From the NCBI GenBank assembly GCA_000165345.1, contig CM000430.1, positions 128,001 through 192,000 of the forward strand: a stretch of DNA of 64,000 nucleotides, given 5' to 3'. The notes under the pieces are model-generated. The model saw nothing but the letters and a program-made list of their open reading frames with translations, did no database searches and was not told where the DNA came from. How positions within the stretch are numbered: the first letter of the stretch is position 1; every line of letters begins with the position of its first letter. Shown piece after piece: positions 14 to 3,000 of the stretch. The position numbers and the translations under genes are program-made.

Positions 14-3000
14 ATGAACGAGACAAGTATACCTTCTTATCAATTTGTAATTCTTTGCAATATAATAAGTTTAAGACTTTACCACATTCATGTGATAAAT
101 GGTGAGATCCAAAAAGCAATGATTCATTTAAAGATTCATTGTAGAACACTTCGAGAATTTGGAACAAATCATCCAAAATTTAAATTTTTGTCATCACTAT
201 GGCTTTCTCAGACATTGCAAAAACTTGCTTCAGTACTTTTTTTTCACCTTGTTAATAAGAGCTTTATTCAAGATCAAAGTATAAAAGAAGATACAAAGCT
301 ATGTCAGAATAATCATCATAAATATCCAGATGGACTTGAATTCTCGTTAATCCCATTATCTATAGGTAATAAACACGAAAAAATCATTTCCAGAATTTCA
401 GAATCTTGTAGAGAGAATTGTACGTTTAAGTTTGAAAATGAAAACCTTGGTGATATTCTCTCTTCAATTGCTAGATCAATTCAAAATATTGTGATTAATA
501 TTAATAATAATAATAGCCAATGCGATAATGTAATTTCAGATGAATTGAATGGAAAAGATGACAGTAATAAAATTGAAGATCGTTCTGGTATTACTATATT
601 AAACAATAACAATAATCAGAATAATATAGTACTTGATACATTAATAAACATTTCCAAACTTTATAAAACTTCAGCAGAATACTCTCATCTTTCAAAAAGT
701 CAATTAATTGAATTTTGTAATGAATTTGATACAGAATTATTCAGTAATGACCAAGAAATTGGAGGAGAGATTCTTCCTCCTCTTTCACTTGGGTGTTTTG
801 AAGAACTTTCATCTCCTGAAACTTTTCTTGAGTATGAAAGAAAAGGGCTCTCCAGTACTAGCCAACATAAAACAACTTTTGATCAACTCAGTAAACTTTG
901 CTCACTTTATATAGGCTCAGATTCTTTTGACATTAATCAGATTGAAGACAGAAGCATTGCTTCAGAGGTTCTTGCATCTTGCGAGATTGTTAGGAGAAAC
1001 ATTAAATCACTCATTAATTCCAAATCTTTATTCTATAGGTCCATCTCACTTTTTTACACTTCAGCAGTCATTTACAGACATTTTTATCCAATTAATTTAT
1101 TTAATACCATCTCCCAACAAAATATTAACCTCAACACAAACACTGAATCAGAAATACCCCAAAAAAATGTTGCGATTAATAATAATAATAATAATAATAA
1201 TAATAATTTGTCCACATTAAATAGTACCCCTGACAATAAATGCAATCAGCCCGCACCGACAGTGCATGTGGACAATGCATGTCAGAGTGGATGCATGCAG
1301 GCGGGTGCAAGTATGGCAGATAGTACTACCGGTACTAATGGTCAGAATCCGGGTGAACTGGTGAATGTTGGTTCTGGAAATTTTACTACAGCACCTACAA
1401 TTCCCTCCAAAATTGCGGCAGGACAAGTTTTCGGACAACTGACGGATCGTTTCTTTCAGATGATTTCCTTTTCCTTTGCTGAGTATTTGTTTGAGGAAAA
1501 TTATATCAACTGTTCTCTAAGTATTTTTGAGGCAATCTTTCAGTCAATCATTCCAAAACATGTTTTTGCTGAAATCAGTAGGCTGACTACAATTGATGAG
1601 CAACAAAATAAATTTTTTGGAAAAAGAAAGGCAAGAATATGGGAAATTGTGAATCCACAAATGACTAATACATGTTTTCAAATAACAAATAGTTACTTTG
1701 ATTCAAACTTTTGGTTATTTTTAAAACGAGTTTGCACTCGGATACTTGAATGTCTTGCTATTCAAAATTTAAATTTGGAAGAAAGAAAAAATATTCCCAA
1801 AATTACTATTTCTAATACAAGTTCTGAAAGTAAATTATTTGGTAATAGCAATATCAACAACTCCAATCTATATAATAATAGCAATATTAAGCAGGATGGT
1901 CAATATATTTATTCAGTTGTCTCAAGTTTCTTAGCAGTATTAAAACCAAAAAGAACATGGACACAAGGCCAAAATCAATGTAAACATAAAAATAATATTC
2001 CAAATCATTGTTCAATTCTTATTCTATCTTATTTAATTATTTCAAATTCTCTTGAAAGGGGCTCAGAAACTGCATGTAAAATAGAAATTGAAGCCTTTTA
2101 CAAATGGATTCAAGTACTATATTACAAAGTATTGAATAATAATATTACTAGTAATAATGAAGGTGATCACTCAAATAATATTAGTAATTCTAATACCATA
2201 CAACAACTCACTCCAGTTCTTACAGGTAGTAAAGCCCAAGTAAAGAATATCTTATTTACTCATTTTCTTCATAACAATTATTCCACAATATTACAAGATC
2301 AATCAATTCCCGATAGAATCATCATAATGATTCATCATTTCCCGACTTTTCTTAACGTATTTATTAATTCCAGAATGGAAACTACCCTTGTGACCAATAT
2401 TGGAATATTGGGAGTAATTATTGAGAAATTTGAAGTTGTTGAATTTGAAGAAGTTGGGAGATTGAACTCTCAATTATCATTGCACTGTAGGATTAGACGT
2501 GTGAACTATATTCCACAGAATTATGAAGATCATCATTCCAGAAAATTATTCTATCAAGTTTATCGTCCATCAATCCTTATTTTTGGCATATTCCTATATC
2601 TGTTCGTATCAAATTCAAACCAAGCTAATGATTATATCAAGTTTGGAATCAATAATTTAAAATACTTTAATTATCAAAAATCGATTTCAAATTTGACAGG
2701 AAGTAATATATACAACTTTTCTTATGTTCAATTCTGTCTCAGAAACCCATCACTATCATATTTTACATGCATTGGAAGTTGGCTACGTCATTCAAGAACA
2801 CTTATATATAATACTCCTAATTTGCAAATTGTTCCAGGTGGATTTTTAGATTTATCTACAAATTCTATAGCAAATCCAGTTCCAATTTATAAAGTTCCTG
2901 TTGATGATTTGCAAATCTTGTCAAAGTTTTCTCAACCATTTAACTCTCTACCAATATTTCACAAGCTTGTTACTAATAATATAAAGTTTAATGATCAGTT

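Follow-up and report, generated by a model that had tools for sequence, protein, structure and literature searches.

Within a 64,000-nucleotide stretch of Cryptosporidium parvum chromosome 2 (the window), a GC-rich island at 1225-1440 lies in frame inside cgd2_580, a giant open reading frame (ORF). From the evidence set out below, we consider it very probable that this island is an RNA polymerase II promoter that sits inside the cgd2_580 coding sequence, faces the opposite way and drives the antisense RNA Cp_lnc_106. A promoter written into coding sequence in this manner would give rise to a transcript of ~2.4 kb antisense to the gene. A sequence-only reading of the same DNA had offered three interpretations of the island, namely a coding region constrained by an overlapping regulatory or structural element, a recent insertion kept in frame, and a GC-rich intron; it is the regulatory form of the first that gains from our analysis, both from extreme conservation at synonymous sites and from a published antisense 5' end (position 1175) that lies 50 nt from the island. 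The features to which we refer are the following.

1-1175, - strand: body of Cp_lnc_106 (CPATCC_0030283), ~2.4 kb, with its 5' end at 1175; it leaves the window leftwards
14-5557, + strand: 3' 5.5 kb of the cgd2_580 coding sequence (EAK88884.1, 2231 aa, TRAPPC10/11-like); the window begins at codon 385
1176-1207: (AAT)n tract coding for poly-Asn, its length varying among species
1208-1217: TTGTCCACAT, inverted copy of ATGTGGACAA
1208-1218, + strand: proximal copy of Motif 5, TTGTCCACATT (AATGTGGACAA on the lncRNA strand), coding for L-S-T
1250-1257: CCCGCACC, within the island
1259-1333: conserved core of the putative promoter, with 13 of 25 third codon positions invariant in eight species
1263, 1276 and 1292: starts of TGCATG, the copy at 1292 being inside the palindrome TGCATGCA (1292-1299)
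1263-1270, + strand: TGCATGTG, a match to TGCATGYR, the site type of macrogamont promoters and ApiAP2 factors (cgd2_3490 / cgd1_3520)
1265-1275, - strand: distal copy of Motif 5, TTGTCCACATG on the lncRNA strand (CATGTGGACAA on the + strand)
1266-1275, + strand: ATGTGGACAA
1276-1283, + strand: TGCATGTC, a near-match to the AP2-type site
1286-1299: AGTGGATGCATGCA with the palindromic AP2_1 site TGCATGCA; eight species share AGTGGA and ATGCA unchanged
1300-1305, + strand: GGCGGG, an E2F-like core
1327-1334: TACCGGTA, of which CCGGT is invariant in eight species
1336-1440, + strand: Gly/Ala/Pro/Val-rich part of a protein linker, indel-prone and poorly conserved

The gene and the composition of the island

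The translated ORF matches residues 385-2231 of the cgd2_580 protein (record P0036) without a difference, and both the open frame through the island and the peptide previously quoted for it are correct. With the full-length cgd2_580 orthologue, Pfam returned a sole match, TRAPPC10 C-terminal, which is weak and below threshold; a gene fusion at the island is therefore not indicated. Neither Rfam (at the gathering threshold) nor ARAGORN gave a match across the whole 64-kb window.

The island had been put at roughly 50% GC against some 28% in the surrounding gene. We find 48.1% over 1225-1440, a value attained by just 0.06% of the 216-nt windows across the 64 kb, so the enrichment stands, but the background has to be corrected to 29.6%, the value for the whole ORF. 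Most of the rise is at codon positions 1 and 2 (0.56 and 0.55 versus 0.37 and 0.32), position 3 rising less (0.33 versus 0.21). From 1336 to 1440 the richness in GC follows from the amino-acid composition of the linker.

The motifs claimed for the island are present (two copies of TGTGGACA, two of TGCATGYR and one of GGCGGG over 1225-1440), but the inverted copy of ATGTGGACAA lies 8 nt outside the boundary that had been drawn. Elsewhere in the window the same set is seen between genes only. The 8-mer TGTGGACA occurs five times in the window, twice in the island and three times in intergenic DNA, versus 1.1 expected from first-order Markov simulations, and none of 100 such simulations gave TGTGGACA with both TGCATGYR and GGCGGG within 150 nt. 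The motif pattern of the island exceeds chance. Twelve of the 13 copies of GGCGGG in the window are non-coding, that at 1300 being the sole coding copy. We treat this copy as E2F-like only: the C. parvum site CAGGCGGGTGC does not match either form of the E2F/DP site ([A/T][C/G]GCGC[G/C][A/T] or TTTGGCGGGAAV), consisting of the E2F core alone without T-rich or A-rich flanks. This core also differs between species, reading GCGGG in four, GTGGG in the two taken from Logan assemblies, and GCCAG and GCGTG in the other two. Further downstream, within the linker part at 1336-1440, C. canis carries additional E2F-like sites (TTTTGGCGGGCC) that match the E2F form more closely.

An antisense transcript begins beside the island

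Cp_lnc_106 is listed as an antisense lncRNA by Li et al. 2021 (PMC7840661). We took the transcript from the published sequence, whose 5' end derives from assembled short reads and may be in error by tens of bases; the supplementary FASTA and the reverse complement of window positions 1-1175 are identical at 1175 of 1175 positions, with 0 mismatches. The RNA covers the first third of cgd2_580 and extends beyond its start codon. A cluster comprising the two inverted copies of ATGTGGACAA, two or three TGCATG(Y)(R) sites and GGCGGG is located 33-160 nt upstream of the lncRNA 5' end. The proximal copy of Motif 5 is 33-43 nt upstream and is separated from that end by the 1176-1207 tract, an A+T-rich stretch when viewed in antisense, while the distal copy is 90-100 nt upstream. 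Table S3 of the same study gives the MEME 'Motif 5' (TTGTCCACATK) for Cp_lnc_106 at -99 (+, TTGTCCACATG) and at -42 (-, TTGTCCACATT). Mapped onto the window, these sites are 1265-1275 and 1208-1218, i.e. the two inverted copies picked out in the sequence-only reading. The palindrome TGCATGCA (AP2_1) and GGCGGG, at -117 to -124 and -125 to -130, are absent from Table S3 because the upstream motif search of Li et al. spanned 100 bp only (PMC7840661).

Expression of Cp_lnc_106 is given in Table S5 as 5.63 in the oocyst and 5.23, 5.26, 6.41 and 8.26 at 0, 2, 24 and 48 h, respectively, with both differential-expression flags set to 'up' (PMC7840661). It is thus on at 24-48 h, as sexual stages appear, and it is included in the '48h enriched' list of Table S6, 48 h being the time of the sexual stages (PMC7840661). 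The lncRNA is missing from the list of 167 conserved in C. hominis and C. baileyi (PMC7840661); that list was built on oocyst RNA, and Cp_lnc_106 is silent in the oocyst. Among the lncRNAs with Motif 5, 8 of 18 are 48 h-enriched versus 44 of 396 lncRNAs overall (hypergeometric p=2e-4), and 11 of the 18 have a GCATGC motif within 100 bp.

These data suggest how the antisense promoter might work. Macrogamont promoters are enriched for TGCATG(T/C)(G/A), which is also a match to the site of cgd2_3490 (Hasan et al. 2024, PMC11078545). The TGCATG(Y)(R) sites of the island appear to belong to the class recognised by two female-stage ApiAP2 factors, cgd2_3490 and AP2-F. We would expect the island to be bound by both factors and its sequence to be sufficient as a promoter. 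Cp_lnc_106 may in turn act in some way on cgd2_580 (CPATCC_0030280), with which its expression is positively correlated (r=0.77; PMC7840661). As for earlier descriptions, the literature that we searched, including the C. parvum AP2 protein-binding-microarray paper, names no protein that binds ATGTGGACA, and we found no main-text description of TGTGGACA, GTGGACA or GTCCACAT in connection with Cryptosporidium or ApiAP2. The ATAC-seq / polycistron preprint has nothing on intragenic sites.

The same motifs could also be read in the other direction. A module that is bidirectional, or that is chiefly an internal promoter or enhancer for the sense strand, would be compatible with antisense activity, and we consider it unlikely although not negligibly so. 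The right-facing ATGTGGACAA (1266-1275) would then start a sense transcript at ~1310-1330, whose protein product would lack the N-terminal part and begin at the conserved Met in FFQMISFSF (1459). Such an arrangement would suit the inverted orientation of the Motif 5 copies and the dyad symmetry of the whole core, the occurrence of Motif 5 upstream of lncRNAs in either orientation, and the copies at 8079 and 52645, which are oriented towards the likely direction of transcription. The sense/antisense correlation is likewise as expected if sense read-out also climbs at 48 h, but co-regulation of the full-length mRNA explains it equally well; moreover, no internal sense transcript has been reported and the closest in-frame ATG (1313) is not conserved. 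We regard with similar doubt the fuller proposal that a bidirectional sexual-stage promoter arose de novo in a disordered linker of a trafficking protein, where it would dictate H-V-D and S-G-x-M-x-x-G-A and also launch a truncated, TRAPPC-like sense transcript in the female gamete. If the bidirectional reading were true, ATGTGGACA would be the site of a sexual-stage factor conserved in the genus.

Synonymous sites are conserved across eight species

We aligned by codon the orthologues from eight Cryptosporidium species, which include C. parvum, C. ubiquitum, C. canis and two Logan assemblies. The island is translated in all eight, its frame intact through all indels. Orthologue alignment with a measure of synonymous-site conservation had been suggested as a check on the island, and it came out in favour of the regulatory reading: the segment is found in eight species, with synonymous sites in the core conserved far above the rest of the gene. 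In 1259-1333, 13 of the 25 third codon positions do not vary, compared with 7% over the gene as a whole, which makes this the top window of cgd2_580 for synonymous conservation; the runner-up, 4598-4672, looks like a scatter of sites and not like a motif block. The longest run in the gene that is invariant in all eight species is CATGTGGAC. At sites where the amino acid is invariant, the codon is also invariant in 8 of 12 cases in the island versus 63 of 752 elsewhere (Fisher p=1.4e-6), and the per-amino-acid rates predict 1.07 such codons in the island (P=1e-7). Codon conservation in the core persists despite a wide gap in GC3, which is 0.61-0.72 in C. canis and the two Logan assemblies and 0.20-0.26 in the others. 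Of the two Motif 5 copies, the distal one spells H-V-D and in doing so uses GTG and GAC, which are rare codons; GTCCACAT of the proximal one is retained in six of eight species, having been lost in C. ubiquitum and C. canis.

Use of both strands would account for this pattern, the codons of the stretch being frozen because both strands are in use. The peptides L-S-T, H-V-D and S-G-x-M-x-x-G-A may then be, for the most part, incidental translations of the binding sites, which lie in a linker that tolerates change and is prone to indels.

Constraint of this kind could in principle come from RNA structure in the sense mRNA or from a DNA cruciform, which we think very unlikely. The candidates are a long hairpin formed by the dyad TGCA-CCCGC-TGCATG ... 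CATGCA-GCGGG-TGCA and a 10-bp stem between TTGTCCACAT and ATGTGGACAA. RNAalifold gives nested helices in which five pairs are changed on both sides, CCCGC/GCGGG becoming CCCAC/GTGGG in both Logan species, and the covariation score is above all but 2 of 500 shuffles, a weak signal in which one lineage is dominant; for the antisense strand of 1200-1345 the folding z score is -1.87. Against this, the sense strand has z scores of -0.67 and +0.57, the 73-nt core ranges from +1.05 to -2.42 in six species with differing minimum-energy folds, and the covariation term of the alifold is unfavourable (+0.71). The 10-bp stem has no compensatory change, and its left arm decays in two species. The structure was itself derived from the same sequences, in which palindromic motifs such as TGCATGCA pair with themselves trivially, and the same motifs are conserved in intergenic contexts that are non-transcribed or otherwise oriented. 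Weak covariation within a dyad-symmetric layout leaves some room for a structural role.

It is highly improbable, in our view, that selection on the protein alone is responsible, with HVDxAxQSGxM a functional peptide motif of the linker and the resemblance to a promoter accidental. The peptide core is indeed kept in eight species, but protein selection does not fix synonymous positions, and codons at amino-acid-invariant sites are invariant at 67% in the island versus 8% elsewhere in the gene. Some of the codons that are fixed run against composition: GTG and GAC, both rare, where the species is AT-rich, and the A/T-ending CAT, AGT, GGA and GCA where GC3 is 0.7. Third positions are also kept despite amino-acid change (13 are invariant versus 10 invariant residues), and a mapped transcript begins beside the island.

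Origin of the segment

All eight intestinal-clade species carry the segment at one and the same position, and only the distant C. xiaoi and C. serpentis lack it, which points to an old, lineage-specific gain in frame; from this distribution we infer that it arose, already in frame, in the ancestor of intestinal Cryptosporidium. The idea of a recent insertion therefore holds as regards a lineage-specific gain and fails as regards its age, the segment being common to eight species at one position and without features of a mobile element: terminal repeats or target duplications do not flank the island, there is no second copy in the window, and the sole inverted repeat (1208/1266) is internal to the element.

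We give almost no credence to an in-frame spliceosomal intron or to a recent or mobile insertion, for, although the C. canis annotation splices out 117 in-frame nt (GT...AG) in the island and two species lack the segment, the ORF is open in eight species with all indels multiples of three and a conserved peptide core that runs across the supposed intron, the genomic ORF of C. canis is uninterrupted and its 'intron' codes for the conserved QSGHMHA, the equivalent GT...AG in C. parvum would cover ~20 nt, which is no usable length, and the segment is part of the proteins deposited for C. parvum and C. hominis. The intron proposed in the sequence-only reading is thus contradicted, and that annotated in C. 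canis is probably a mis-annotation.

Related promoters and implications

The intergenic patch at 7990-8095 had been said to share its building set with the island, and we do find there CCCGCACC, two GCATGC, GCGGGT and ATGTGGACAA. In this module GCATGC, GCGG and ATGTGGAC are kept in six species. CCCGCACC is conserved neither there, where it differs even in C. hominis, nor in the island, and the match between the two places is therefore probably a coincidence. A search of Rfam at E<=1 with 7900-8530 gave no match, and in the part of the lncRNA FASTA of Li et al. that was searched no sequence matches 8170-8365. In the promoter of CpCCp3 (cgd2_790), four species share TGCATGCATG, ATGTGGAYAA, TAGTACCG and GCATGCATGTG without change, and TAGTACCGG comes after ATGTGGACAA, as it does in the island. 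CpCCp3 is AP2-F-dependent and female-specific (Tandel et al. 2023, PMC10233709).

That the codons have stayed frozen throughout the history of the intestinal clade speaks for a function of Cp_lnc_106 or of its promoter and against transcriptional noise. The sharing of Motif 5 (ATGTGGACAA) with CpCCp3, together with the enrichment of its lncRNAs at 48 h, further suggests that this little-noticed motif is a conserved cis-element of the sexual stages. A promoter placed in this way should be removable by synonymous recoding that leaves the protein untouched, which would separate sense from antisense function. It is no new kind of element: C. parvum is already documented to have antisense lncRNAs with upstream AP2 and E2F motifs, and this transcript and its two TTGTCCACAT sites are in a published supplementary table (PMC7840661); with element and instance known, the new detail is the synonymous-site constraint at the Cp_lnc_106 promoter.

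Comparison with known systems

The island is one of the antisense lncRNA promoters of Li et al. 2021 (PMC7840661) and falls in their class with Motif 5 and ApiAP2_1 (GCATGC), an architecture that it has in common with the promoters of Cp_lnc_215, 227, 241, 291, 329, 353 and 69. Those authors discuss only E2F and AP2_1, and Motif 5 is given in a supplementary table only. Their account does not contain the location of the promoter in a translated linker, the freeze of synonymous sites in eight species, the gain in the intestinal clade, or the TGCATGCA and GGCGGG sites that lie just outside the 100-bp search window.

With female (macrogamont) promoters such as that of CpCCp3 (PMC11078545, PMC10233709) the island shares a vocabulary of TGCATGCA, TGCATGTG, ATGTGGACAA and TACCGG. 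The island and the CpCCp3 promoter are also alike in that their motifs are conserved across species and their activity comes late, in sexual stages. These female promoters, however, are intergenic and drive mRNAs, whereas the island lies inside a coding sequence and would drive a non-coding antisense RNA. ATGTGGACA in addition fits A[T/A]G[T/A]GGA.A, the consensus that Oberstaller et al. 2013 (PMC3734150) describe upstream of genes for class II oocyst-wall proteins. The COWP genes belong to the female stage, and that paper makes no link to lncRNAs (PMC3734150). The consensus is looser than ATGTGGACA: of its 28 matches in the window, 16 fall in coding DNA.

The name 'duons' was reportedly given by Stergachis et al. 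in 2013 to transcription-factor sites within exons that limit the choice of codons. Like a duon, the island appears to carry a protein code and a regulatory code in one stretch of DNA, and this shows as an excess of synonymous conservation. Unlike duons, which are a genome-wide statistical tendency, it is a single, very strong and delimited module, accompanied by a mapped transcript, in the compact genome of a protist.

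A motif-rich island within cgd2_580

The window lies on C. parvum chromosome 2. Translated, the open reading frame at 14-5557 matches residues 385-2231 of Iowa II cgd2_580 (EAK88884.1) exactly; the 2231-residue product of this gene carries the UniRef label TRAPPC11-domain-containing and gives a sub-threshold Pfam TRAPPC10 C-terminal match. The gene's neighbours in the window encode a nucleotide-sugar transporter, TCP-1 alpha, an acid phosphatase and a SUN-domain protein. GC content at 1225-1440 is 48.1% vs 29.6% for the gene, a level attained by 0.06% of 216-nt windows across the 64 kb, which confirms the sequence-only reading that had singled out this island. 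The excess comes mainly from codon positions 1 and 2 (0.56 and 0.55 vs 0.37 and 0.32), with a smaller rise at position 3 (0.33 vs 0.21). Every motif listed in that reading was found, one inverted copy lying barely outside the proposed island start, and both the open frame and the peptide it had quoted proved right. The motifs are:

1208-1217, TTGTCCACAT, the inverted copy of ATGTGGACAA
1250-1257, CCCGCACC
1263, 1276 and 1292, TGCATG
1266-1275, ATGTGGACAA
1300-1305, GGCGGG

With ORFs of 150 aa or more treated as coding (66% of the window), we counted 13 copies of GGCGGG, 12 of them non-coding and the sole coding copy at 1300, and five copies of TGTGGACA, two in the island and three intergenic (8080, 18472, 52646), where first-order Markov simulations predict 1.1 per window. 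A cluster of TGTGGACA, TGCATGYR and GGCGGG arose in none of 100 such simulations. Neither GGCGGG nor TGTGGACA is present in the window's other GC-rich coding stretches; therefore, GC-richness alone is insufficient to bring these motifs. The island is a real and strongly non-random feature, and its motifs belong to the vocabulary of promoters.

Selection on synonymous sites

We aligned the codons of eight species: C. parvum, C. hominis, C. meleagridis, chipmunk genotype I, C. ubiquitum, C. canis and two Logan assemblies (SRR31861040, SRR31860986). Over the gene's 5.5 kb in the window, only 7% of third codon positions never vary among the eight, compared with 13 of 25 at 1259-1333, the highest value of any such stretch of the gene; the synonymous-site conservation that the earlier reading had proposed to compute is extreme there. 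The longest invariant nucleotide run is CATGTGGAC (1265-1273), and AGTGGA, GTGCAA, ATGCA and CCGGT are also among the top runs, all inside 70 nt. Among degenerate codons with an invariant amino acid, 8 of 12 in the island and 63 of 752 elsewhere show no codon change (Fisher p=1.4e-6); from per-amino-acid background rates, 1.07 unchanged codons would be expected in the island, and the probability of at least eight is 1e-7. Composition is excluded as the cause because codons are kept despite a GC3 of 0.61-0.72 in some species and 0.20-0.26 in others: C. canis and the two Logan species, with high GC3, retain CAT, AGT, GGA and GCA, and the AT-rich species retain rare GTG and GAC. We conclude that the island DNA itself is under selection, beyond the protein's need.

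An RNA structure as the constraint on the island is not well supported. RNAalifold detects weak covariation, with CCCGC/GCGGG changed to CCCAC/GTGGG in two related Logan species, but its structure was fitted to the same data and built largely on palindromic motifs, and the signal may reflect a dyad-symmetric array of binding sites. Moreover, fold z-scores for the island are -0.67 and +0.57 on the sense strand and -1.87 on the antisense, the 73-nt core yields differing folds in six species (z from +1.05 to -2.42), and the 10-bp inverted repeat has no compensatory change, its left arm having decayed in two species. Selection on the protein alone cannot fix synonymous sites.

The stretch at 4598-4672 ranks second in cgd2_580 for synonymous conservation (9 of 25 third positions invariant); its invariant sites are scattered, with no recognisable motif block. 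The GC3 values above (higher range in L006, L007 and L008, the C. canis and two Logan orthologues; lower in the C. parvum group) amount to a big compositional shift within the genus, with gene GC of 0.50-0.54 vs 0.30-0.32; the two Logan assemblies are of Cryptosporidium species whose protein is 57-58% identical to that of C. parvum.

Origin of the segment

The frame is open through the island in all eight species, all indels are multiples of three, and the peptide core K-C..P...H-V-D.A.Q-S-G.M..G-A is common to all. C. xiaoi and C. serpentis have only 41-45 aa between the conserved flanks YRHFYP and DRFFQM, a linker of 27% GC that lacks every island motif; in a protein alignment, the C. ryanae linker is short like that of C. 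xiaoi. Parsimony places the in-frame gain of the segment in the ancestor of the intestinal clade. Of the recent in-frame insertion that the sequence-only reading had offered, to be checked by orthologue alignment, the in-frame gain therefore stands, given the absence from C. xiaoi and C. serpentis, and the recency is contradicted by eight species sharing the segment. Its GC-rich in-frame intron is contradicted by the open frame, the indel lengths and the shared peptide core.

The C. canis annotation (GCA_027243975.1) excises a 117-nt in-frame GT...AG 'intron' in the island (L006, ~8340-8456), such that the deposited protein has 2118 aa, 39 residues missing. This is probably a gene-finder artefact, since the genomic ORF runs uninterrupted through 2157 codons and the excised piece encodes the conserved QSGHMHA.

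An antisense RNA beginning beside the island

Working from stranded RNA-seq, Li et al. 2021 (PMC7840661) assembled 396 lncRNAs; MEME, run on the 100 bp upstream of each, defined 'Motif5: TTGTCCACATK' (Table S3), which is entered twice for Cp_lnc_106, as TTGTCCACATG on the strand of the RNA (-99) and as TTGTCCACATT on the opposite strand (-42). The Cp_lnc_106(-) FASTA agrees base for base with window 1-1175 read in reverse complement (0 mismatches over 1175 nt); therefore, the RNA's 5' end lies at 1175 (-), the Table S3 motifs are the two inverted copies noticed from sequence, and the island occupies -50 to -265 relative to an antisense transcript already annotated, with the conserved core at -84 to -158. 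This RNA of ~2.4 kb spans the 5' third of cgd2_580 and ends ~100 nt past the start codon, outside the window. It is catalogued as CPATCC_0030283, antisense to CPATCC_0030280, with expression of 5.63, 5.23, 5.26, 6.41 and 8.26 at oocyst, 0 h, 2 h, 24 h and 48 h (Table S5), both differential-expression flags 'up', a correlation with the sense mRNA of 0.77, and a place among the '48h enriched' (Table S6; PMC7840661). A poly-Asn (AAT)n tract at 1178-1207 adjoins the 5' end and differs in length among species (10 Asn in C. parvum, 6 in C. hominis, 5 in C. meleagridis, fewer in others).

A stage-regulated antisense RNA thus starts beside the island, and the remaining proposal of the sequence-only reading, a coding region overlapped by a regulatory element, was right, given the synonymous conservation and the adjoining transcript. 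The island is most likely an antisense-lncRNA promoter already catalogued, and its novelty is therefore low. What is new is modest: synonymous sites frozen across eight species, an in-frame origin confined to one lineage, and a tie between Motif 5 and the promoters of sexual stages. These details make the function of Cp_lnc_106 directly testable.

Related modules in the window

CpCCp3 is a crystalloid-body gene expressed only in female gametes and AP2-F-dependent.

52590-52700, CpCCp3 promoter: TGCATGCATG, ATGTGGACAA (ATGTGGA(C/T)AA), TAGTACCG, TAGTACCGGTG and GCATGCATGTG
52906-56649, CpCCp3 (cgd2_790)

Amid diverged surrounding DNA, TGCATGCATG, ATGTGGA(C/T)AA, TAGTACCG and GCATGCATGTG do not vary among C. 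parvum, C. meleagridis, C. ubiquitum and C. canis, and ATGTGGACAA and TAGTACCGGTG vary there little or not at all. TGCATGCA, a palindromic AP2_1 site, occurs nine times in the window, three of them coding (1292, 47116 and 54279, the last within CpCCp3); the latter two copies could mark further intragenic promoters.

The same words recur at 7990-8095, as the sequence-only reading had claimed, between the convergent nucleotide-sugar transporter and TCP-1 alpha genes. GCATGC, GCGG and ATGTGGAC are invariant there in six species; the CCCGCACC shared with the island is not conserved and is therefore probably due to chance. AATGTGGACAAAT followed by a TATA-like run, pointing rightwards, suggests a putative unannotated transcript antisense to TCP-1 alpha; 8170-8365 has no match among the lncRNA sequences searched, an incomplete set from Li et al. 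2021. In the same intergenic region, at 8255-8405, a TCATTATATAAACTTAGTG...AGTATTTCACTGATAGCTAT block and a GC-rich TTGCCGCCTTTTCGGTGTGGGGAGGGAAGTCG...GGCCCGTTGGGCGGGCT block are kept in five species, with fold z-scores of -1.6 (+) and -0.7 (-) and no Rfam match even at E<=1. A fifth exact ATGTGGACAA (18471-18480, -) lies between the acid phosphatase and SUN-domain genes, which diverge from this intergenic region; Cp_lnc_107, a published lincRNA expressed at 48 h only, maps just upstream of it, to 18950..18609 (-).

Proposed working and sexual-stage counterparts

We hypothesize that factors of the sexual stages gather on the island and initiate leftward transcription from about 1175: an ApiAP2 protein would occupy the TGCATGYR sites, some protein ATGTGGACA, and perhaps an E2F-like protein GGCGGG. 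The poly-Asn tract would serve as the A+T-rich region at the start site, and the conserved linker amino acids would be by-products of binding sites. Cp_lnc_106 covers both the 5' end and the start codon of the sense gene, and it rises along with cgd2_580 mRNA.

The island holds a dense, conserved motif set found elsewhere in sexual-stage gene promoters. From the tables of Li et al. (PMC7840661), 8 of 18 Motif 5 lncRNAs fall within the 48 h-enriched set (44/396; p=2e-4), as do 5 of the 7 with exact TTGTCCACAT, and 11 of the 18 have a GCATGC motif within 100 bp. The upstream regions of 65 macrogamont genes are enriched in TGCATG(T/C)(G/A), a motif that matches the site bound by the AP2 proteins cgd2_3490 and cgd1_3520 (PMC11078545). 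The island's ATGTGGACA likewise fits the 'unknown motif A[T/A]G[T/A]GGA.A' upstream of oocyst-wall class II genes (PMC3734150).
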